DNA of 64,000 nucleotides from Antechinus flavipes. Taxonomy: Eukaryota. The DNA lies in contig NC_067398.1 of the NCBI RefSeq assembly GCF_016432865.1, forward strand, positions 117,428,001 through 117,492,000, given 5' to 3'. The notes beneath the pieces are model-generated. The model ran no database searches and was not told where the DNA came from. It worked only from the letters and a program-made list of their open reading frames with translations. Positions 8,978-54,000 of the stretch are shown here, piece after piece (position 1 is the stretch's first letter; each line of letters begins with the position of its first letter). Made by a program: the position numbers and the translations under genes.

Positions 8978-10026
8978 GACACCCCAAAGCTTCTAGAAGC
9001 CACAGTGCCTCTTGAGCATAGGAAGGAATCTGGTCCTGCCCTTGTATAAATTGTATAGAGTACCCTCCATTGGGTCTAAGTATTTATATATGTATTTTCC
9101 TGTTTCCAGTTTTGTCTGTCCGTGGTAAGTGACTTTTTTTTTTTCTTATCTGAAAGGATGTTACAGAAGCAGTGACTTTCATATCTACAAGGATGAAGTT
9201 GCTTGAGTCTGGGCTCTTAGGTTCATATTCTCATGTTTTTGACTGAAATACTGATATTTATGTGGGCTTTAAAAGTCTCAATAAATGAATATTTGTTACC
9301 TATTGCTTCATGTTTCTGGCCCAAGGTGGAAGCCAAGCCAAGGCCTCTTTTTCTGTGTTAGGTCAACTCAGGAAAGCTGGCCCAACTCAGATTGCTTATC
9401 ATTGCAATAACCAACCAATTTTACTTCAGAACAGCCTATGCTGCATCTACCTCTCATCTTCCCTTCTATTCACTTAAGTTCTCTTACTTTTGTTGTGTGC
9501 AAAGGTGAGAGCAGTTTTATCATTGGGACATATAAACCAGTAGTTTTAGCTCATTGCTGCTTCCTTTCTCACAAGAGTTGGGGAATGAATCCTTAAAACT
9601 CCTCCAGGAGTCCTAACTAGCCATGTCATTTTAGACTTGTTAGTTTGTCTCTTAGGGCTATTGCATCATAAGGCAAAGGGATCACTAAATATTCTCAAGG
9701 GTTCCTGGATTGTAAAATAGTAATTTTTTTCTCATAGCCCAAGGAGTGGGACAATTATATCGCTTATTAGTCCCCAACTGGCCTCCTCTTTTATCTTTGG
9801 ATATCCTTAGTAGGATTCTGGTTCAACCTACTGAAGGCCTTAAATTGGACAGGCACAGGATTATGTCTGGTCCACTCCTCCACTAAGGACAGTTAAATAG
9901 AAGCTCTGCTCTCCTAAAAGTGGAATGTTAAGGCAGGTAGGTTAGGCTTCAAGACTGCCTATTCCAAAGGATACAGTGCTAAAAGATAAGCCCACTGAAT
10001 AATTGAACAGTTGATTGGTCCTGGAG

Positions 10027-10445
10027 AACAGATGACAAAGTACTTGCCTTCAGAGTATTGGGAGACTATGAAATAGAATGTTGCTTATACTGTTAGGATA
10101 GTTTTGCTTAACTTTTTAGGTTATAATAGATTTTCATCTTAAAGGGATGTGTAGCTGGGGATTGATAACAGATGACAAAGTACTTGCCTTCAGAGTATTG
10201 GGAGACTATGAAATAGAATGTTGCTTATACTGTTAGGATAATTTTGCTTAACTTTTTAGGTTATAATAGATTTTCATCTTAAAGGGATGTGTAGCTGGGG
10301 ATTGATAACAGATGACAAAGTACTTGTCTTCAGAGTATTGGGAGACTATGAAATAGAATGTTGCTTATACTGTTAGGATAGTTTTGCTTAACTTTAGGTT
10401 ATGATAGATTTTTATCTTAAAGGGATGTGTAGCTGGGCATTGATA
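10027..10445. repeat. Tandem repeat, 3 x 140 bp
   Basis: The unit AACAGATGACAAAGTACTTGCCTTCAGAGTATTGGGAGACTATG...GTAGCTGGGGATTGAT starts at 10027, 10167 and 10307. Copies 1 and 2 differ by about one base; copy 3 differs by about five changes. Confidence 0.95.
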
Positions 10446-31260: not shown

Positions 31261-32047
31261 ATCAAACCATTTTAATATGTAATGCAGGGTAGAAAATAAA
31301 TTACTATCTTATTTTCCTTCCAAAAAAGGCTATTGTAATAGAGATGAACCCCTCATGTTCAACCCAAAATATCTCCTAAACTATAGATTATCTCTGGAAA
31401 TTAAAATACAGGAACTTTTATTTTGCATTTGTTTCAGGCATTAGATCAAAACTCCCCCCTCCTCTGGATCATACCATATCACACAATCTGGCCCCTCCTC
31501 GTGGTGAAGGATTCCCACGTGGTAAGTGGGTGGGATCTTCAATCCTCACTTCTGTGCTACTTTAGTATTTTGCATCTGATTCTTTAACCACTGCTCTCTT
31601 CTATGAAGTTATAATCTAGACCTAGGTAACAAATAACGTCTGCTTCTCTCGGTATGCAATACAAAGACTAATAATAACAATCATAACAGAAGGGGATTCC
31701 TGTTTCAATGACTTGTATATAGTTTACACATTTTTATATCCAAACCTATTCTAAGTAATTACTTGGATAAGATAGTGTACTAGAAACTGAAGATGCAAAA
31801 ACAAAATGCAAAACTTTTGCCTCCAAAGAGTTTGGAATTTTGGGGGGGTAGGGGCGGGGAGGGGGGGAGAGGAAGGAAGAAAAGGGAAAGACCATATCAA
31901 CCAATCATACTTTAAATATTAAGCACCTACTATGTGAAGAGAGATAGCATAGAAACAATTTTATATAAACGATTATTTGAGTATTTAAGCCCAGAAAGAC
32001 TAATGACTGGGCTATCAAAAAGAGTTCCAGTAAGAAGGGGCATATCT

Positions 32048-32519
32048 TTTTTTTTTTTTTAATTTATTAGAGCTTTTTATCTACAATAATCTTCTGGTCC
32101 TGCTCATTTCACTCAGTATCAGTTCATGTAAGTCTCTCCAGGCCTTTCAGAAATCATCCTGCTGGTCATTTGTTACAGAACAATAATATTCCATACTATT
32201 CATATACCACAATTTATTCACCCATTGTTCAATTGATGGACATCCACTCAGTTTCCAGTTTTTGGCCACTAAAGAGGGCTGCCACAAACATTTTTGTGCA
32301 TGTGGGTCCCTTTCCCTTCTTTAAGATCTTTTTGGGATATAAGCCCAGTAGTAACACTGCTGAATCAAAGGGTATGCACAGTTTGATAACTTTTTGAGCA
32401 TAGTTCCAAATAGTTCTCCAGAATGGCTGGATGTATTCACAATTCCACCAGCAATGTATCAGTGTCCCAGTTTTCCCATATCTCCTCTAACATTCCGCAT
32501 TGTCTTTCCCTGTCATTCT
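32048..32519 (-). mobile_element. 5'-truncated L1 insertion with perfect 16-bp TSD
   Basis: Poly(T) at 32046-32060 and L1 ORF2 3'-end/3'UTR sequence. AAGAAGGGGCATATCT is duplicated at 32032-32047 and 32520-32535, a TPRT hallmark. Confidence 0.9.
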
Positions 32520-34565
32520 AAGAAGGGGCATATCTTAAAGGAAGCCTGAAGTATTAGGGAGCAGAGGTGAGGAGCAAGTGCATTCCAGCTCATTCAAAAG
32601 CTGGAGTTGGAGTAGGGGATGACTGGGATTACCAAGATCAGTGAACAGTGCTAAGGACAAACCAGCAACCCTGCAATCTAACAGCAGGCTTTGGACAGTT
32701 AAAAAAAATTATACGCACATACCTATTATATACATATATACATATACATATATATATGAAGAGAATTTTTTTTAAGAGAATTCTTGGGACTTCCAGCCAA
32801 GATGGCGGAAAGGACACACACATCTACTTATTCTGTATCTTTGCTCTCAGAATTTATCTCATGACAGAGCCTCGGAATTAGTGCTTGACTGAAAAAAAAA
32901 TCAAAACACAAATAATTACCAACAGAAGACATTCCTATTGCTGTCCTGCTAGTGCCTCACTGCTACCCCTGCAGTCTTCTGAGGAAGCTCATTAATACCA
33001 TCCAGTCCCACCCCTCCAAAAAAATGTTTTTTTCCTAGTTTGTTTTCTTTGATTTTTTTTTGGCAAAATGAGTGAAAAATTAAAATGAACTCTAACTATT
33101 CATAGCGTCTATATATAGAGAGAGCAGACTTTAAAACCTGAGGATACTAAAAACAGACTGTCTCCAGATGAATCCCCAAAAAGGTCCTCAACACACAGGA
33201 CTCTCATAAAATTAAAAAGGCTCTCACAAGAGAACTAGAAGAAAAATGGGAAAAGGAAAGAGAAGCTTGGCAGGAGAGTCTGGATAAGTCATCCCACTCA
33301 TTTAAAGATAGAGTGGATAAAGAAATCAAATCCTTGAAAAACAGAATTAGTGAATTGGAAAAAGAAAATAGCTCTCTAAAAAATAAAATTGGCAAAATGG
33401 GAAAAAAATTCCATAGAACAAAACAACTCACTTAAAAACTCAATTGGACAATTAGAAAAAGATATTAAAAAAGTGAGTGAAGAAAATAATTCATTGAAAA
33501 TCAGAATTGAACAAATGGAATTGAATGACTCAAGGAGACACCAAGAATCAGTCAAGCAAACCCCCTCCCCCCCCACCTCAAAAAAATTAAACAATGGGAA
33601 AAAATGTCAAATACCTTCTTGGGAAAACAACAGATCTGGAAAATAGATCTAGGAGAGACAGTCTGAGAATTATTGGACTCCCTGAAAAATATGATGAAAA
33701 AAAGATCCTGTACACTATTTTTCTAGGAAATTATCAAAGGGAACTGCCCAGATGTTATAAGAAGAGAAGTTAAAATAGACATTGAAAGAATTCATCGATC
33801 ACCTACTGAAAGGGACCCTAAAATCAAAACTCCAAGAAATATAGTGGCTAAATTCCAGAACTATCAAGCCAAGGAAAATATAGTACAAGCTGCTAGGAAA
33901 AATCAATTCAAATATAGAGGAGCCACAATAAGGATTACCCAAGATCTAGCAGCATCCACATTAAAGGATCAAAGGGCGTGGAATATGATATTCCAAAAGG
34001 CTAAGGAACTTGGTATGCAACCAAAAATAACTTACCCAGACAAAATGAGCATCTTTTTCCAGGGAAGAAGATGGCATTCAATGAAATAAGCGAATTTCAT
34101 CTATTTCTGATGAAAAACTGGAACTAAACAAAAAGTTTGATCTACAAATATAGAACTCAAGAGAAACCTAAAAAGGTAAAAAGAAATCTTGGAAACTATA
34201 TTTCTGCTATAAAGATATATAAAGAGCACATGTATAATTTGTTCTAGAAACTAGAGATGGAAAAGAAAATGTATTAGAAAAAGGGTAAAATGGGGGTACT
34301 ATATCTCACGAAGAGGCAAAGGAAACCTATTATATCTGAGAGAAAGAATAGAGGAGGGTGAACATAGTGTGTATCTTACTCTTATCAGAATTGGCTTAAA
34401 GAGAAAAATATTAGACATATTTGATTTATGGTGAAACTTCTTCCACCTCATTGAAAAGTGGGAGGGGAAAAGTTAAAAGGGAAGGAGTAAGCTAAGCTGA
34501 AGGGAATACAGAAATCGTGAAGAAAAGGGATAAGATAGGGGTAGGAACTCTAAGGTGGGGGGAGG

Positions 34566-34917
34566 TATGATGACCGCATTAGCAACCAATACCTTAGAAT
34601 CAGCCGGAGTCAGGATAAGCAAAAGTCCTTAGTCTTTGTTCTTGGTCTTTAGAGGTAGGATTGAATTAGATGGAAGCAGAATCATGGAGAGTCCATGACC
34701 TTCCTTCTCCCTCATCTACTGCCAAAGTGACTCTGGCTAGTCTTACTCTACCTCCTAGTCCCCCCTACAATTCTCTGTATACACCAATCATCAAACCAGC
34801 ACAGCATAGTTTTTCCCAAGCATATGCCTATAGAGTATTGTCCAATCTGTAGTTAGCCTTAAGTTCTCGGCTGTCCTGACCTCAGTGCATCGACTCAAGA
34901 ATTTCAAGCCCATTACA
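34566..34917 (-). mobile_element. ERV 3' LTR
   Basis: Homologous to 41150-41502. The terminal CA is mutated to TA and the poly(A) signal reads AACAAA (34635-34640). Confidence 0.95.
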
Positions 34918-34933
34918 TCTCCCACTTTCTTTT
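34918..34933 (-). promoter_or_regulatory. Polypurine tract
   Basis: AAAAGAAAGTGGGAGA immediately upstream of the 3' LTR TG. Confidence 0.9.
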
Positions 34934-35293
34934 GTTTTAGAACACAGGTGGTCACACCATCCCTGACTTCTCAGGGAGGTGAGAACCCCAAAAAGGAGGT
35001 GATAATGCCCCATCCTGACTTCTCAGGAAGGGAGATGAAAAGCACCAAAGGGAAGTGAAGATTGCTAGCGGGTTTCTGGGCTGAAGGGTCTTATTAGAAA
35101 CAGGTATGCACAAACTCATCAGCATGTGAGGCATTACACAAGCACATAGCAACAATGCACAGGCTATTAGTGGTGACTCTCCCCACAGCCAGTGCAGGCT
35201 CAACATGGTATAACAAACATGAATTGTAAATACAAGTAGTGGTATAACAAACGATATAAACCAACATGGTGTTGTAAAAGATTTCCAGAAGTC

Positions 35294-35971
35294 CTAGAAG
35301 GAGGGTATGTCAACAATAGTCACACATACGCCTTCTTCAGCAGCCAAGAGATAGTCCAAAATCAATCTATTGTCCATTGCTTCATATGTCAGGGAATCCA
35401 ATGAACCCCACAAGTTTTTGAAGTCCTGCAAAGTCTTTTTATGTGTTAGGGAATCCAATGATTCCAGCAGATTTTGAAGTCCTGAAACAGTCTTATCATG
35501 TCTCAGAGAATCCAAGGATTCCTGAGGGTTTTCAAGTCCTACAACAGTCTTATCATGTCTCAGAGAATTTAATGATTCCTGAGAGTTTTGAAGTCCTACA
35601 ACAATCTTATCATGTCTCAGAGAATCCAGGGATTCCTGAGGGTTTTCAAGTCCTACAACAGTCTTATCATGTCTCAGAGAATCCAATGATTCCTGAGGGT
35701 TTTCAAGTCCTACAATAGTCTTATCATGTTTCAGAGAATGCAATGATTCCTGAGGATTTTGAAGTGCTACAACAATCTTATTGTGTCTCAGAGAATGCAA
35801 TGATTCCTGAGGGTTTTGAAGTGCTACAAAAATCTTATTGTGTCTCAGAGAATCCAATGATTCCTGAGGTTTTTGAGGTCCTCCAACAATCTTATCATGT
35901 CTCAGAGAATCCAGTGATTCCTGAGAGTTTTCAAGTCCAATAATTTTTGATGTCCATGAGTCAAATGCCAT
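35294..35971 (-). CDS. Env-TM-derived tandem-repeat ORF, 225 aa (10 x 19 aa plus ISD-like motif)
   Basis: ATG in strong context (GTTATGG), with no stop over 225 codons. Repeat consensus LENPQESLDSLRHDKTVVG; ends SLDSLTYEAMDNRLILDYLLAAEEGVC, which resembles the gamma-type ISD (QNRLALDYLLAxEGGVC). Expression is unproven. Confidence 0.6.
   Translation of the reverse strand: MAFDSWTSKIIGLENSQESLDSLRHDKIVGGPQKPQESLDSLRHNKIFVALQNPQESLHSLRHNKIVVALQNPQESLHSLKHDKTIVGLENPQESLDSLRHDKTVVGLENPQESLDSLRHDKIVVGLQNSQESLNSLRHDKTVVGLENPQESLDSLRHDKTVSGLQNLLESLDSLTHKKTLQDFKNLWGSLDSLTYEAMDNRLILDYLLAAEEGVCVTIVDIPSF
35366..35935. repeat. 57-bp minisatellite, about 10 units, inside the provirus
   Basis: Plus-strand unit approximately AAGTCCTACAACAGTCTTATCATGTCTCAGAGAATCCAATGATTCCTGAGGGTTTTC. 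Eight units are close to consensus and two terminal units are divergent. Confidence 0.97.
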
Positions 35972-36123
35972 AACTGCCAAGCTCTTTCAGTGGTGGGCAC
36001 AATCAGCAACGGAACCATCCGAAGTTTCTTGGGTCTTCTCCTTTGTTTCAAGGGTCTGCTCTGTTTCTCTTCAATGGACAAGGAGAATACGACTTGTTGG
36101 CACCCATCTGATTCCTTCTTCAT
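35902..36123 (-). CDS. 73-aa Arg-rich ORF directly after the env splice acceptor (Env signal peptide / Rec-Rem-like candidate)
   Basis: The acceptor TTTGCTTGTATCTTCACAG|ATG resembles the HERV-K env acceptor. The protein MKKESDGCQQ...KQRRRPKKLR...ERAWQLWHLTHGHQKLLDLKTLRNHWIL* has a basic tract and an AWQ helix like the MMTV Rem and HERV-K Rec leaders. This resemblance is from memory, not an alignment. Confidence 0.5.
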   Translation of the reverse strand: MKKESDGCQQVVFSLSIEEKQSRPLKQRRRPKKLRMVPLLIVPTTERAWQLWHLTHGHQKLLDLKTLRNHWIL

Positions 36124-38610
36124 CTGTGAAGATACAAGCAAACCCTCTCCCCAAGCAGTTAACCTATCTCGTTCCTTCCATTCACCACTTTCTGGATCTC
36201 TCCACATCACCTAGAAATTATCTAAAGATAGTGGAGCTGCTCGCACTGGATACTGCTCTTCCAGTGGGTTATAAAACCTGTCTGCCGGAGCCAGTGCATC
36301 TTTGTCAAAAATCAAGAAGTTAATAGTATAAAGAGCTAGATTTAGAAGTTCTCTAGGGTTAACTGTGGCTCCCCCTTTCTTTTGTTTTTGGAGGAGTGTC
36401 TTAATGTCTCTATTTCTCCTCTCTACTATTGCCTGTCCTTGAGGATTGAAAGGTATGCCAGTGGTGTATAAAATCTTATACTGTGCACAAAAGTGTGCAA
36501 AATGTTTAGAAGTATATGTTTTTATTGCTTGTGGCACACCCATAATTGCAAATGCTTGTATAAGGAATTCAGTGATCACTCGGGCTGTCTCTTTTGCTGC
36601 TGGTATTACAAAAGTGAATCCTGAAAAAGTGTCTACCACAATATGGATAAAAGACAGACGACCAAAAGATTTATAATAGGTCACATCCATTTGCCAAATT
36701 TCATTGGGTCTCAAACCATGAGGGTTCTTCCCTGGAGACAGTGTAGGAGCATGGAAAGGAATGCAAGCTGTACAGGCTTTTACTATGCTCCTAGCTTCCT
36801 CTCTTGTTATTCCAAATTGTAAATGTAAAACTCGAGCAGCCTGATGATATTTAAAATGAGATTCTTGGGCTTCCTAAAATAAAGGAGTGTTGGCCAACAT
36901 GGTTAGAAGGCTATCTGCTTTTGAGTTACCATCAAAAATAGGACCTGGAAGTCCATTATGAGAGTGGACATGCAAGATATAAATCTTACCTGGATGCTTT
37001 CTCACTTGCTCTTGAAGAGCTGATATATATTAGAGGCTACAAATTTTATTTGGGCTGTGGCAATTCTTTGTACCATACCTACTGAATAGGCTGAACCAGA
37101 TATTATATTTATATCTACTCAATAAAGTAAGAGCTAGAATGATTGCATACAATTCATTCTGCTGAGTGGACTGAAAGGAGTTCTGACTACTCTCATTATA
37201 GTTAAGTCACAAGAGTATACAGCACAAATATTATGTTTGGATGCATCTATAAAGATAATTGTTTCTTTAAGAGGAACTTTAGAAACCTTTTCTTCAAGAG
37301 TCCATTGCCAATTATGTAATAGTCTGGGGTTATCTTTAATGGAGACCTGTGTGTAAAATTTGGAGCCATGGCTAATAAAATTTGCCACTCTGGGATGGTC
37401 TCACAACACACATTAATTTGTGCATTAGTATAAAAGGTGTATATCTTGTCAGGTCTTATCCCAGATAATTGTACTGCTTGCTCAATGGACTTTAATAAAA
37501 TTCTAACCACAAACACTGGGTAAGGAGTAAGGCTTTGTTCTGGTTGTGCTGGGAGGTTCACCCACTCTATCACACTGTCTCCTTGATGAAGGACTGCTGT
37601 GGGTGCCTCTTGTGTAGCAAAAACTGATATTTCCAAGGGTTTTTGAGTGACTCTTTCAACCACATTGGATAAAGCCAGTTCAACTTCTCTCAAAGCCTCT
37701 TGAGCTTCTTTTGTAAGCTAGCATGGTAAGTTTAAAGCATTGTCTCCCCTTAAAATGTCATATAATGGTTGTAACTGATAGGTAGTCAAGCCTAACACTG
37801 CATGCATCCATTGGATATCTATATCAATTTCTGAAAGTCATTTAAGGTATTTAGGTTCTCTGTTTTTAAGGATAGTTTTTGTACTGTAAGCACCTTAGGA
37901 TATACTTCATATCCTAAATATTGAAAAGGAGAATGTCTTCGAATTTTTTTGGGAGCTATGTACAATTTGTAGTATCTTAGTGTTTCTATGGTCTTTTGTA
38001 GACATGCTTCTAACATTTGTTCCTCAGGTGCACATCCCAATATATCATCCATGTAATGTAATAACATAACTTTTGGAAATGCTTTTCTTACTGAAATAAG
38101 AGCAGCAGCAACATACATTTGACACATAGTAGGGCTGTTTTTCATCCCCTATGGCAAAACTGTCTATTCATATTTTTTATAAGGCTCAGCTAAGTTAACG
38201 CTGGGTACTGAAAAAGCAAATCTTTTCATATCTTCCTTATCTAGAGGGATATAATAGAAACAATCCTTAATGTCTATAACCCAAAAAGGCCATTCTCTAG
38301 GGAACTGAGTAGGACATGGAAGCCCAGGCTGAAGAATTCCCATAGTTTCCATCTGTTCGTTTACCTTTCTTAAATTAGTCAATATCCTCCATTTTCCAGA
38401 TTTCTTTCTTACAACAAATATGGGGGAATTCCAAGGATTTAGAGAAAGTTGTAAGTGTCCTTGGTCAAGTTGCTCCTGTACTATATCTAATAAGACCTGA
38501 ATTTTATCGCTACCTAAAGGCCACTGTTCTATCCACACTGGTGTATTAGTTTTCCATTGAATAGGAACAGATAAAAGTGTTGGCAGGCTTTCAACAACAG
38601 CCCTGCCTAA
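36071..38610 (-). pseudogene. pol: ERV pol (RT-RNase H-IN, disrupted)
   Basis: RT PVWIEQWPL, PWNSPIFVVRKKSGKWR, LQPGLP, IDIKDCF, LHYMDDIL, PFQYLG; RNase H IFIDAS; IN H-H-C-C finger, WQMDVT, PQGQAIVER. Multiple stops and frameshifts. Confidence 0.93.
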
Positions 38611-39420
38611 AAAACCAAAGTACTCATTTTTAATCCTAATTGTTGTAAAATGTCTTTTCCCCACAGATTGATGGGGATTTTTTCAACTATAAAAGGAATA
38701 AAAATTCCTGTTTCACCTTCAAATATCCATCTCAAAGGGATAGCACTAACTTCAGCTGCTCTTGATCCTCCTACGCCAGATCTATAGGTGTCTGCCTTAA
38801 TCTTTGGCCAGTGACTGGGCCAGTTGACACCTCTAATTATGATTTGCACCAATGTCTACCAATCCTTCTAATGGCATGCCATTTATATAGATAGTGAGCA
38901 TAGATTGGTCAGCTGTTACAGCTGCTGTCTAGTATATTCCTGGATTTTGTTGTTTGGAGTCAGAATTTGGGCGACTATCACCAGATTGCTTATTAGGAGT
39001 CTGTATCAGTAAACCTGATGCTACTACCTTTCCTGGTTGATAAGTTACACATTATCTACCTGTATTAGTGACTGCGATATTTACAAATTCTCCAGTTTCC
39101 CACATCGGTGTATGGATGGACACTGTTTTGTAAGTACACTCAGGAGGTGAAATGGTCACGTCTACTGTGCCTGGAGGCAAGGGATCCATAGGCTGGAGAG
39201 GAACAGATTTCACCTCTCCAGGGGGTATCTCAGTTGTCCCAGCTGCATACAACTCTATTCTCCCCAATTATAATCCCTTTCTCCCATCGGATGGCTTCCT
39301 AGCTGATTGGTCATGTCTGGGTACTGAATTTCTAGGCACTCCCTGAATATAGCATTGGGCACCATCATGCCCCAAGTGTTTTTTGCCTGGGGCCCTGGAG
39401 ATGGGCTCCTCATCCCGTTT
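38607..39420 (-). pseudogene. pro: ERV pro (degenerate dUTPase-like domain plus aspartic protease, disrupted)
   Basis: G GAA AAC slippery site near 39416-39422; dUTPase-position domain IELYAAGTTEIPPGEV...PLPPGT; protease GLVDIGA and NLWGKDILQQLG. Confidence 0.85.
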
Positions 39421-41009
39421 TCCTGAATCAATCTACATTCTGAGGCCTAATGAAAGCCTCTGTTGCATTTTGGACATGGGGTATTGGGTCTTGTTCTCCC
39501 ATCCTGTTTTCTCACTCTGTGAGAACATTGCCAACATTGAGCTTTCAGATGCCCTACTTTTTACCACATTGAAAGCATTGATGAGTGTCTCTGGAAGTCC
39601 CTTGCCAAAAGGGATCCTGTATTCCCATGTTTGGATCTTGGGAAGTCTGCATCATAGCCTGGTTATAAAAGGCATTTGTGCCCATTGTGGCACAGCATCT
39701 TATGATCTCCTCTAAAGGAGCATCCTTGCGTAGTCCTAGTATAATTCTTCTACAAACCTTATTAGCATTTTCTTTAGCAAGTTGCCTTATCATAATGTCT
39801 TTTACTGCATTTTCACCATTAGTTCATACGACAGCTGTCTGCAAATGTCCCACAAAATCAGCAAAGGATTCATTTGGCCCTTGTGCTATTTTTGTGAAGG
39901 CTTCACCCTTGTCATTTTTATTGGGGAGAGAAGCCCGTGGTTTGATAGCAGCAGCAGCAATTTGCTCATATGCTGCTAAGGGGTAATTAATCTATACTGA
40001 AATTTCTGCATAAGAACCTACACCTCTTAGTTGGTCATAGGTGATTGGAGGATTAACTCCCCTATGACTATTTTGTTGGGCATGATATCCTACAGAGCTC
40101 ACTATATTCAGAAAGCCACAACAAGTTTTGTCCAGGTTCTAAGCATGTCCTTGTTATAGATTTCCAATCCCTAGGGTTAAGACTTCCTAAGCCAAATTCT
40201 GTAATAACATCTTAACATAAGCTGATGTAGCCCCATAAAGAGTGCAAGTCTTTTTCAGGTCTTTGAGTATTTCTATATCAAATCCACTTTCTTGACATGA
40301 AGAGTTAAACTATTGAATCATAGGATACATACCAATTTTCAGATCACCTAAATTCTGTCCTTCTTCTGTGGCTTCTAAGTACGGCCTTTTGCAATCTGGT
40401 CATAGGAGAGGGTGGTTGCTGGGGAGGGAAGGTGCGCTGGTGTCACTGCCTCTCCCACTACTCCTCCTCCCTCCATCTGGGAAGATGAAGTTGATGGGGG
40501 CATGTCAAGAACCAGTTCCGGTTTAGGTAGGGTTGAACCACCACGCCCTTCACCACACCCTTCATCCTCACTTAATTCCCCATGCCCTCCTGTGATATTG
40601 CTTTTAATCCATTTTTTGTCTTCCTCTTTTTCCTCATACTTCCTCATCTGGCTATTCTTAGAATTTTTCTTTTTTCTATAACTTGCAGGATTCTTTAAGG
40701 CCAATTGTATTATGTTCTATGTATAGAATATTCCCTTGAAAATTGAACAAGGCCCTTTATCATTGTAGTACTCACATAGTTGCTCTCCTACCAGCTTCCA
40801 ATTATCTAACCCTATCTCTTCTTCCTTTAAGAACCAAGGGGACATGCGTTTTAATGTATCCAAGAGTCTAGTAATCTGCAACCAAGTTACAATTAAGCCT
40901 TGTCCCTTGATCAACTTAAGTATGCTTTCTATAGCACCCCCTTGGGGCGGGGGTGGGCGTGGGCTGAGGCTGGGGTTGGGGGAGAATCTTTTCCCAATAT
41001 CTGCCCCAT
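39400..41009 (-). pseudogene. gag: ERV gag (disrupted)
   Basis: Myristoylation start MGQILGKD at 41009; matrix WLQITRLLDTLKRMSPWFLKEEEIGLDNWKLVGEQL; MHR QGPNESFADFVGHLQTAV; two zinc knuckles (CFQCGK..., CPKCNRGFH.ASEC). Several stops and frameshifts. Confidence 0.9.
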
Positions 41010-41129: not shown

Positions 41130-41147
41130 TCCACATGTTGGGCACCA
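41130..41147 (-). promoter_or_regulatory. Primer binding site, tRNA-Lys(1,2) type
   Basis: TGGTGCCCAACATGTGGA versus the canonical TGGCGCCCAACGTGGGGC. Two of the four mismatches are CpG decay. It sits 2 nt after the LTR CA end. Confidence 0.85.
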
Positions 41148-41149
41148 AA

Positions 41150-41502
41150 TGTGAAGACCGCATTAGCACTCTGGATGCCTTAGAATCAGCCAGAGTCAGG
41201 ATAAGCAAAAGTCCTTGATCTTTATTTTTGGTCTTTAGGGGTAGGATTGAATTGGATGGAAGCAGAATCTCCTCGACCTCCTTCTCCCTCGTCTACCGCC
41301 AAAGTGACTCTGGCTAGTCTTACTCCACCCCCTAGTCTCTCCTACAATTCTCTGTATACACTAGTCATCTAGGCAGCACAGGATAGTGGGAAGGACCATT
41401 TTCCAAGCATATGCCCATAGAGTGTGTCCAATCAGTAGTTAGCTGACGTGTTCGGCTGTCCTGACCTCAGTGCATCGACTCAAGAGTTTCAAGCCCATTA
41501 CA
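41150..41502 (-). mobile_element. ERV 5' LTR
   Basis: Minus strand TGTAATGGG...CTTCACA. It carries AGGTCA, ACGTCA, ATTGG and TATACA motifs and an AATAAA at 41221-41226, and is followed by a TT spacer and the PBS. Confidence 0.95.
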
Positions 41503-42195
41503 GGGAGGGACACTAAAAAGGGAGGGCTGTGAGAAGCAAGTGGTGCTCACAAGTTTAATACTGGGGAGGGGGGTAAGGGGGAAGGAAAGAAGAAAAGCAT
41601 AATCTGGGGATATCATGATGGCAGGAAATACAGAATTAGTAATTTTAACCATAAATGTGAATGGAGTAAACTCCCCCATAAAGAGGAAGCAGTTTGCAGA
41701 CTAAATTAAAAGCCAGAATCCTACAATATGTTGTTTACAGAAAATACACCTGAAGCAGGGAGATACATGCAGAGTAAAGGCATTAAAATGCAGACATACT
41801 TTTCTATTCTATTCATTTCTAGTATTCTCTTCTGTGAATGTATAGATTCCTATGAGACTAATGGGACTGCCGAATAGACTCCACTTTTTCTTCACCTCTG
41901 CACAGTCCAAGCCACAACTCAAGATTTCTATTTTTTTTGTCAATCTGATCTGCAAAACTGTTACCTTCTATAATAGTTATCTCCTCTGAGAAGGGGAACA
42001 GAATTATAGGAAGTAATATTGGGCATCTAACACCTAGGCCTCTCAATGACTTTAGACCTATCTAGCTTACAAAATAGCCACCAAAACTAGGAATCTCAGG
42101 ACCCATGTACCTAGAGTCAAGGAAAGAAATACAGAATAGAAACAAGGATTTGAAATCCAATCTAAAACATACCTAGAATACTTACCTGTTTACTA

Positions 42196-51079: not shown

Positions 51080-54000
51080 TATAAAAGCTTTTTATTTTTC
51101 TAAATACATACAAAGATAGTTTTCAACATTCACCTTTGCGAAACCTTGTGTTCCAATTTTTTCTCCCTCCTTCTCCCTTTCTACCTTTCCTTAGACAGCA
51201 AGTAATCCACTATAGGTTAAACATGTGCAATTCTTCTAAATATATTTCTATATTCATCGTATTGCACAAGAAAAATCAGATCATAAGGGAGAAAAAACCA
51301 CGAAAGAGAAAAACAAAAACATTTAGTCACCATAGTTCTCTCTCTGAATCCAGATGACTTCCACCACCACCAAAGAAGGTGATTTGATTCACATTCAGTC
51401 TCCATAATTCTCTCTGTATTCGGATTTTTCCACTATTGGAATTACCTTGAATCTCACCTCGATGTTGAAAAGAGCCAAGTCTACTTTGATTATATTAAAT
51501 TAAAAAGGTTTTGCACAAACTAAACCAACAGAAACAAAATTAAAAGGGAAGTACAAAGCTGAGGGGGAAATCTTTTTTTTTAATTGTAGTAAGTTTATTT
51601 ATTTTTAATACGTATTACTTTATGAAAATGTTGGGAGAGAAAAATCAGAACAAAAGGGAAAAAATCATGGGAGAGATTAAGGAAAAAACCCAAAAAAAGA
51701 ACTGAACATAGCATGTATTGATTTACATTCAGTCTTCTTAGCTCTTTTTCTAGATGCAAATGGCATTTTCTGTCCAAAGTTTATTGGAATTGCTTTGGAT
51801 AACTGAACCATTGAGAAGAATGAAGTTTTTCATAGTTGATCATTGCACATTCTTGTTGTTATTGTGCACAGTGTATTCCTGGTTCTACTTGTTTCATTCA
51901 GCATCAGTTCATGTAAATCTTTCCAGGCCTTCCTATAAAGAGCTTGTTCATCATTTTTTATATAACAATAATATTCCATTGTCTTTATATGAACAACTTG
52001 TTCAGCCATTCCCCAACTGAATCCTCTCATTTTCCAATTCTTTGCTACTGCAAAAAAGAGCTACTACAAACAGTTTTATACATGTGGATCCTTTTCCCTC
52101 TTTTAAGATTTCCTTGAGATAAGAACCCAGTAATGGCACTGATGGATCAAAAGACATGTACAGTTTTATGGCCCTTTGGGCATAGTTCCAGATGGCTTTC
52201 CAGAAAAGTTGAATCATTTCACAATTCCACCAACAATGCATATTAGTGTCCCCTACACCAAAATAAGGTCAAAATGGATAGTTGATTTGGGCATAAAGGA
52301 TGAAACTATAAATAAATTAGGAGAACAAGGGATAATTTATCTATCAGATCTTTGGAAAAGGGAGGAATTTATGACCAAAAAAGAACTAGAAAACATTATA
52401 AAATGGACAACTTTGATTACATTAAATTTAAAAAGGTTTTGCACAAACAAAACCAACAGAAACAAGATTAAAAACATTAAAACATTATTTCTGATAAAAA
52501 TCTCATTTCTAGTCATATGGAAAAAATGCTCTAAATCACTATTGATTAGAGAAATGCAAATTAAGAGAACTCCAAGGTACAACTTCACACCTCTCAGATT
52601 AGCTAAAATGACAGGAAAAGATAATGATAAATGTTGGAGGGAATGTTGGAGAACTGGACCACTAATGCATTGTGAAATGATCTAACCTTTCTGGAGAGCC
52701 ATCTGGAACTATGCCCAAAGGGCTATCAAACTGTGCATACCCTTTGATCCATCAGTATCATTACTGGGTCTGTATCCCAAGGAAATCTTAAAGGAGGGGA
52801 AAGGACCCACATCTGTAGCAGCTCTTTTTGTAGTAGTAAAGAACTGGAAAACGAGTAGATTCCCATCAATTTGGGAATGGCTGAACAAATTGTGGTATAT
52901 GAAGACAATGGAATATTATTGTTCTATAAAAAATGATGAACAAACTCATTTTTAAAAGGCCTGGAATGATTTACATGAACCGATGCTGAGTAAAACAAGC
53001 AGAACCAGGAATATGCTGTACACAATAACAGCAAGAATATGCGATGGTCACTATGAAAGGCTTGGTTTTTCTCAGTGGCTCAATGATACAAAGCAATCCC
53101 AATAGACATTGAACAGAAAATGCCATCTACCTCCTGAAAAAGAACTATGGAAGCAGAATATAAATCAACACATACTATGTTCACTTTTTTCTGTTTTTTT
53201 TTAATATCTCACATAGTTTTCCCCTTTTGCTCTGATTCTTCTCCCCCAATATGATTATAAAGTAATGTTGAATAAAAATAAATAAATTTATTAGGAAAAA
53301 AAAAAAGGCAAGTTCACCATAGCTGATCATCACATAATCTTCTTGTTGCTGTGTACAATATTCTCTTGGTTCTACTCATTTCACTTACATCAGTTCATCT
53401 AAGTCTTTCCAGGCTTTTCTAAAATTACTCTGCTCATCATTTCTTATAGAACAATAACATTCTATTAATTTTATATAGCATAGCTTAAATCAATATTCCC
53501 CAACTCATGGACATCCACTCAATTTCCAGTTCCTTGCTACTACAAAAGAGCTGCAACAAACCTTTTTTTTTAAACATGTATATCCTTTTGCCTCTTTTTT
53601 GATCTCTTTGAAATACAGATTGAGTAAAGACCCTGCTGTTTCAAAGAGTATGATGGTTTTATAGCCTTTTGAGCATAGTTCTAAATTGCTCTTCAGAGTA
53701 GTTAGATCAGTTCACAACTCCACCAATATCTTCTCAGTTTTCCCATATCCTCTCCAACATATATCATTATCTTTTCCTGTCATCCTAGACATTCTAAGAG
53801 GTATGAAGTGGTACCTTGGAATTGTCTTAATTTGCATTTCTCTAATCAATAGTGATTTAGAGCATTTTTTATATGACTAGAAATGACTTTAATTTCTTCA
53901 TCTGGAAATTGTTCATATCCTTTGACCCAGTGGTTCTCAAAGTGTAGTCCAAAAAATTGTTGGGGGTCTCTGAAACCCTTTCAGAGAGTCTACAAATTCA

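Follow-up and report, generated by a model that had tools for sequence, protein, structure and literature searches.

The 57-nt hairpin array described here, which lies in the dead env region of an endogenous retrovirus (ERV) of Antechinus flavipes, is on balance best explained as a variable-number tandem repeat (VNTR), a hairpin-aided minisatellite with no function shown. Apparently it represents an unreported, family-wide VNTR derived from dead env in a known ERV family. According to this explanation, reverse transcriptase (RT) would pause and switch templates at the hairpins and so add or remove units during retrotransposition, and some arrays would expand further as host minisatellites after insertion; the apparent conservation of the stems would then reflect recent copying of units from one another, and not selection for pairing. 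The window, i.e. the whole stretch of DNA analysed, comprises 64,000 nucleotides (assembly GCF_016432865.1, contig NC_067398.1, positions 117,428,001 to 117,492,000 of the forward strand), and positions below are counted from its first letter.

The array belongs to a provirus of 6,937 bp on the minus strand (41502-34566) with a 6-bp target-site duplication, the parts of which are given in viral-sense order:

41150..41502, minus strand: 5' LTR, direct repeat with the 3' LTR
41130..41147, minus strand: primer-binding site, from position landmark and sequence, which we take to be of the Lys-type tRNA
35987..41009, minus strand: broken gag-pro-pol of a class II (beta-like) ERV, from Pfam, with many stops and frameshifts
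35902..36123, minus strand: 73-codon Arg-rich and hydrophobic frame, 3' of an acceptor-like AG (36125-36124)
35489..35944, minus strand: eight core units of 57 nt (19 codons in the pol frame), every one containing a 25-nt hairpin
35432..35488, minus strand: ninth, diverged unit with a 6-pair inner stem only; the same type occurs in 40 of the aligned anchor-chosen loci
35384..35431, minus strand: tenth, partial unit, running on into the ISD remnant
35294..35383, minus strand: remnant of a gamma-type Env TM immunosuppressive domain (ISD) with a stop at its end, from PDB matches
35135..35293, minus strand: hydrophobic stretch in another frame, probably a TM anchor remnant
34960..35028, minus strand: second hairpin array, two copies (35028-35013, 34977-34960), directly 5' of the PPT
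34918..34932, minus strand: polypurine tract (PPT)
34566..34917, minus strand: 3' LTR, the target-site duplication (6 bp) being at 34560-34565 and 41503-41508

Pfam matches in gag-pro-pol comprised Gag_p10, Gag_p24_C, RVP, RVT_1, Integrase_Zn and rve; the hydrophobic stretch had no Pfam match. The LTR pair is identical in 297 of 330 aligned columns, and under an assumed neutral rate this copy would have a rough age of 20-30 million years.

The element appears to be MEBrv 3 (Marsupial Endogenous Betaretrovirus 3), a match made by eye and not as a computed identity. In the parts of Harding et al. (2024, PMC11334065) drawn on here, MEBrv 3 is env-less, carries a gamma-type ISD remnant past pol and makes up ~67%, about two thirds, of gene-bearing dasyurid ERVs. 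Both share a class II pol, the lack of an env ORF, the ISD remnant beyond pol and a very high copy number; two 29-nt patterns located immediately 3' of the array matched the genome exactly at 62 and 1,452 places. As far as the features of the MEBrv 3 record (PMC11334065 supplement) were compared by eye, Pol, Pro, integrase tail, post-pol spacer, hairpin array and ISD are shared. The representative described there is related but different, with about 7.3 kb and 469-nt LTRs against 6,937 bp and ~350-nt LTRs here, and this copy probably belongs to an older MEBrv 3 subfamily (LTRs 90% identical, ~350 nt). Unit length differs as well, being 57 nt in this copy and 43 nt in the record, where among the features compared nine hairpins at 43-nt spacing, seven of them perfect, were counted by eye in the quoll. 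The array is unmentioned in the main text of PMC11334065 and unannotated among the record features examined, and the literature searched, which left most subscription papers out of reach, held no description of it.

The array spans 35416-35938 with period 57 and 9.2 copies, between pol and the PPT, inside the env remnant and ~460 nt 5' of the 3' LTR. On the viral-sense (minus) strand a hairpin of ten pairs with one bulge and a 4-nt loop is present in each core unit (35925-35901, 35868-35844, 35811-35787, 35754-35730, 35697-35673, 35640-35616, 35583-35559, 35526-35502), as the sequence-only reading had described, and the stem is perfect in five of the eight (-10.4 to -10.8 kcal/mol). The other three had been credited with a single mismatch; this holds for two, which lack the loop-closing pair only, whereas 35754-35730 lacks two pairs. 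All five loop sequences listed earlier are present and all are synonymous in the array frame. The claim that variation concentrates in the loop is correct per site (5/32), but most differences are located in the linker (25/256; stem 4/160), and in other copies (311 units) loop variability does not exceed that of the stem (5.7% vs. 5.0%; linker 9.7%).

The hairpin exceeds chance only modestly: a 25-mer of such stability ranks in the top 0.34% of the provirus and is equalled by 19 of 5,627 other 25-mers. Whole-unit folds gave z-scores from -2.6 to +0.75, only one of nine units reaching p about 0.01 against synonymous recoding or dinucleotide shuffles, the whole-array fold gave z = -1.62, and the reverse strand of the array folds equally well. 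In the full-array fold several local hairpins are outcompeted by inter-unit pairing, pair probability falling to ~0.01 in two perfect units.

To judge from sequence comparison, the 57-nt unit is a tandem duplication of a piece of the Env TM N-heptad, situated just before the ISD remnant, and its inner stem would have arrived with the env codons; both conclusions follow from the reading of a single-unit copy taken together with weak matches to Env TM. Single-unit copies were encountered at two of 49 loci (L057, L067). In L057 the single unit reads, as found, through a heptad-like stretch into the ISD, the only PDB match of this reading was an Env TM (E 0.2), and the 57 nt are flanked by 3-nt microhomology (by eye). 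A PDB search with the ISD-remnant stretch of the present copy returned six matches at E<=10, the best five all being retroviral Env TM ectodomains, weakly matched (E 0.07-0.17).

Derived from Env TM, the array is read in the pol frame, directly 3' of the pol stop. It is not superimposed on the 73-codon ORF, that frame ending within the first hairpin. From this copy alone, selection on protein and on RNA had seemed inseparable; comparison with other copies distinguishes the two and shows the protein to be dispensable. That the array was kept as protein, as a 19-residue repeat polypeptide starting just past the pol stop, is very improbable. The period of 57 is indeed a multiple of three, several common variants are conservative (E/Q, V/I, D/E), and the present copy has an uninterrupted frame of 230 codons that reaches the ISD remnant. 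However, this is the only one of 93 copies in which the array frame is open into the ISD, and it stops after ~10 codons in all 30 young copies, while 20 of 66 loci have a stop codon inside a unit. A frame-breaking 43-nt unit occurs in 15/60 copies and, by eye in the part of the quoll record compared, is the sole make-up of its array. Inherited substitutions were synonymous in 3 of 12 cases vs. 22.8% expected (p=0.54), and between the units of this copy 25 codon differences are non-synonymous and eight synonymous. Between the same lineages integrase second positions are constrained (net 0.1% vs. 1.7% at four-fold sites). Protein searches revealed no homologue for the whole frame, nor, against longer proteins, for residues 168-230. 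Protein selection on the array is largely refuted by these sequence comparisons, and whichever reading holds, the 230-codon frame is not to be annotated as a gene. Pfam matches to the repeat (PY_rept_46 and others) came without a matched stretch and were treated as chance.

Copy number was surveyed in 60 of the 62 places of one 29-nt pattern outside the array, from which four near-duplicates and seven without 5' junction were removed (n=49). Hairpins per copy ranged from 1 to 19 with a median of five; three or more were present in 46 of the 49 copies and at least ten in two, the present copy having ten. Hairpin number was unrelated to LTR identity (rho 0.03, 22 loci), and LTR identity gave copies with 43-nt units no significantly younger age (medians 89.8 vs. 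85.8, p=0.16). Exact junctions genome-wide numbered 1,269 (57-nt) and 253 (43-nt), many of the 43-nt ones being situated in a single locus, L121 (G000:C1:657646500-657656400), where 98 hairpins extend over 5.4 kb in mixed 43/54/57-nt units, 79 of them identical. From its size and homogeneity, the L121 array probably grew in host DNA after insertion. Locus L030 has 30 units. In L044 and L070-L072 a stretch of ~830-880 nt from the integrase region, upstream of the array, is tandemly repeated, and RNA reads showed frequent ~500-nt back-joints over the same region, which stem either from tandem copies or from circular RNA.

Such behaviour has parallels in variable retroviral direct repeats and retroelement minisatellites, where copy number varies by RT template switching and by expansion in host DNA. 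In the passages of PMC3187697 drawn on here, template switching by RT is favoured by hairpins, the copy number of viral repeats of 50-75 bp is variable, and direct repeats are lost efficiently during reverse transcription (41% per cycle for 110 bp). In contrast to these cases, the present unit derives from the coding sequence of Env TM and occurs throughout the family. A neutral array would still amount to an unreported family-wide VNTR. Its unit length (57 vs. 43 nt) would mark subfamilies, its unit numbers would document how reverse transcriptase adds and removes repeats in nature, and large host minisatellites would be seeded by it.

Several observations count against the minisatellite reading: arrays persist despite the deletion bias, shared deletions spare the hairpin, few inherited changes fall in the stem, and core units with their ten pairs are longer-paired than the terminal and single-unit forms, which are weaker or shorter. 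The deletion argument concerns the two shared deletions only, private indels being swamped by foreign insertions in five loci; both, of 3 nt (14 loci) and 14 nt (15 loci), are located in the linker, for which the chance by length alone is ~0.3. These points lead to a rival reading, which we regard as a tentative but serious possibility: the env remnant would have taken on a new role as a multimeric cis-acting RNA element, serving export, stability or translation of unspliced RNA. As part of this reading, several weak sites would add up, so that amplifying lineages would keep or regain hairpins while linker and frame were free to change. Consistent with it, the array is placed between pol and the PPT and is retained in old and young lineages and in two species despite the deletion bias, in the 43-nt and 54-nt variants only the linker is shortened, and stems are half as variable as linkers over all sites (5.0% vs. 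9.7%). This last gap disappears, however, once the 12 polymorphic sites are excluded (3.9% vs. 4.4%). By analogy, tandem copies might act together as do weak gammaretroviral stem-loops, which in the part of PMC4174252 drawn on here raise Gag output dose-dependently (4x, 8x). Should the array function as RNA, its thousands of dated copies would document how dead coding sequence gives rise to such an element.

Selection on RNA structure was assessed in 319 units; these came from 66 loci among the first 90, after nine duplicates or long expansions, eight loci without 5' junction and seven interrupted or single-unit loci had been dropped. Of their stems, 114 were perfect, 73 deviated by G-U only and 132 were broken. 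Stem covariation, the check named beforehand, was absent: two-sided paired changes numbered six vs. 5.8 in 2,000 shuffles (p=0.53), in a test of low power because the lineages differ by only ~1.7% at neutral sites. One-sided stem changes broke the pair in 131 cases and gave G-U in 110, and background changes in stems amounted to 188 observed vs. 207 expected. Two of 12 inherited changes fell in the stem (p=0.15), one a wobble and one a break, i.e. 1/12 pair-breaking (p=0.09). Rfam yielded no match over the array at E<=5, and AAGACA was rare, occurring in 4/319 units. The idea of an RNA-export or response element, as first proposed, still has the array's position, the persistence of several copies and the linker-only shared deletions in its favour, but is unsupported by covariation, Rfam or AAGACA. 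The hexamer TAAGAC (143/319 units) resembles the CTE motif, is not that motif, and was not counted as support.

The young lineage also weighs against an RNA element, since its copies tolerate a break or wobbles in every core stem. In 30 loci chosen by likeness to L032 (LTR identity 97.8%), each of the three core stems bears an inherited change (one break, two G-U) and 2/90 stems are perfect. A second set was fetched by 3' flank alone, of which two of 30 lacked the junction; in the remaining 28 loci, three of them seen in the first set, not one core stem was perfect. The three changes in 60 stem sites compare with a neutral lineage divergence of ~1.7%. Hairpin number was reduced by one in ten of the 28 loci, in one of them probably because a unit was missed, and was increased in none. 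A four-hairpin form recurred with the same spacing in eight of them, so that this form may itself have spread, and the floor of about three hairpins may reflect divergence of the two terminal units only. Similarly, L062, with an LTR identity of 98.6%, retains one core hairpin. As side observations, young loci L092-L120 have a diverged ninth-type unit with AAGACA, which by eye is missing from the part of the quoll record compared, and a variable G run in their last unit strengthens the stem (about -11.6 kcal/mol).

A further point in favour of an RNA element is transcription: RNA of the family maps across the array predominantly in a single orientation, the sense one provided that the libraries were made by the usual convention. 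In three RNA runs the depth over the array region was 292-652 vs. 28-107 by orientation; reads were mostly <95% alike and came from many copies, which indicates transcription of the family, not of this copy. A role at the DNA level or in host silencing, either as a repeated transcription-factor or zinc-finger site or through inter-unit dsRNA entering small-RNA pathways, seems improbable. The near-palindromic core does pair between units in the predicted fold, and sequence, more than pairing, recurs in >1,500 exact junction matches (1,269 + 253), but changes after insertion look neutral.

Compared with the 57-nt array, the second one looks on sequence grounds like the better export candidate, and its better fold speaks against an RNA role of the former. 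With a period of ~53 nt, it is located directly 5' of the PPT and comprises one to four hairpins in 121 loci, two in the present copy. The median z of its fold was -2.5 among young copies and -1.7 among older ones (14 of each), and its first seven pairs were 91-100% paired by position, pairs 1-4 being partly fixed by the search motif. Common variants swap Watson-Crick and G-U pairs and the loop varies; no two-sided change was present among them. Two hairpin arrays in one 3' region fit either RNA selection or hairpin-driven duplication.

The MPMV/SRV CTE and the gamma-CTE, in the parts of PMC4174252 and PMC11379458 consulted, share with the present case the 3' position, a beta-like genome with gamma-type env, stem-loops and tandem copies that can be additive. 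However, the MPMV CTE measures 162 nt and has NXF1-binding AAGACA loops, that motif being described in loops of a long stem (PMC4174252, in part), whereas here a 25-nt hairpin with a 4-nt loop lies in former coding sequence. The position of the second array is the same as that of the MPMV CTE and the MER11 element, as given in the portion of PMC11379458 consulted. The 57-nt array stands ~460 nt from the LTR in the env remnant, and the second array occupies the classical place of an MPMV-type CTE.

The MTE of MusD, an env-less amplifier, the RTE, which is the 3' export element of IAP, and the SERV-K/MER11 CTE are likewise located in the 3' portion of class II elements, where they serve export. 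In the sections of PMC11379458 consulted, MTE (412 nt) and MER11 (about 1 kb) are complex multi-stem structures, unlike a variable array of one short hairpin. IAP is named as an env-less amplifier in the section of PMC11334065 drawn on. PMC7551171 and PMC11599104, each consulted in part, served as background only.

The 73-codon frame is probably a remnant of the env signal peptide; in make-up it is Rec/Rem-like, and it had no Pfam match. Along two thirds of its length it overlaps the integrase tail. Of 30 young copies, 20 have the frame open, as does, by eye, the part of the quoll record compared. With Rec/Rem and their response elements (HERV-K HML-2, MMTV) it shares an Arg-rich frame of the env signal-peptide region beside a structured 3' region, but in contrast to these systems the array is located outside U3 and the frame begins with ATG in only 1/30 young copies. 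Among the 15 RNA joints listed (196 others), none joined a donor to the acceptor of this frame.

A more far-reaching scenario, which we consider rather unlikely, is that MEBrv 3, having lost env, put a segment of Env TM coding sequence to new use as a multimeric RNA element, which may work jointly with the array beside the PPT; the frame would have been discarded (43-nt units), and the hairpins kept and re-amplified, aiding the dominance of the family in dasyurids. Export of unspliced RNA by env-less class II ERVs is known for few elements, and if the scenario were true, former coding sequence would have given rise de novo, by tandem duplication, to an export or stability element all of whose intermediates are preserved in the genome.

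Some minor observations concern the remainder of the provirus and the window. At the start of pro/pol, Rfam gave two sub-threshold matches on the minus strand, a gag/pro frameshift site (E 0.044) at 39368-39423 and the RSV RNA stability element family at 38210-38489 (E 2.9e-5, far below the gathering score). The provirus apparently lies inside what we take to be a LINE-1-like element, with ORF1-like frames at 33172-34089 (plus strand; window positions 32000-34560) on one side and LINE-like sequence at 41503-42000 on the other. At 51574-53306 nested inverted repeats with arms of 90-198 nt (76-88%) are formed by oppositely oriented interspersed repeats, and at 10024-10443 a stretch of 140 nt is present in three direct copies, the first two of which are 99% identical.
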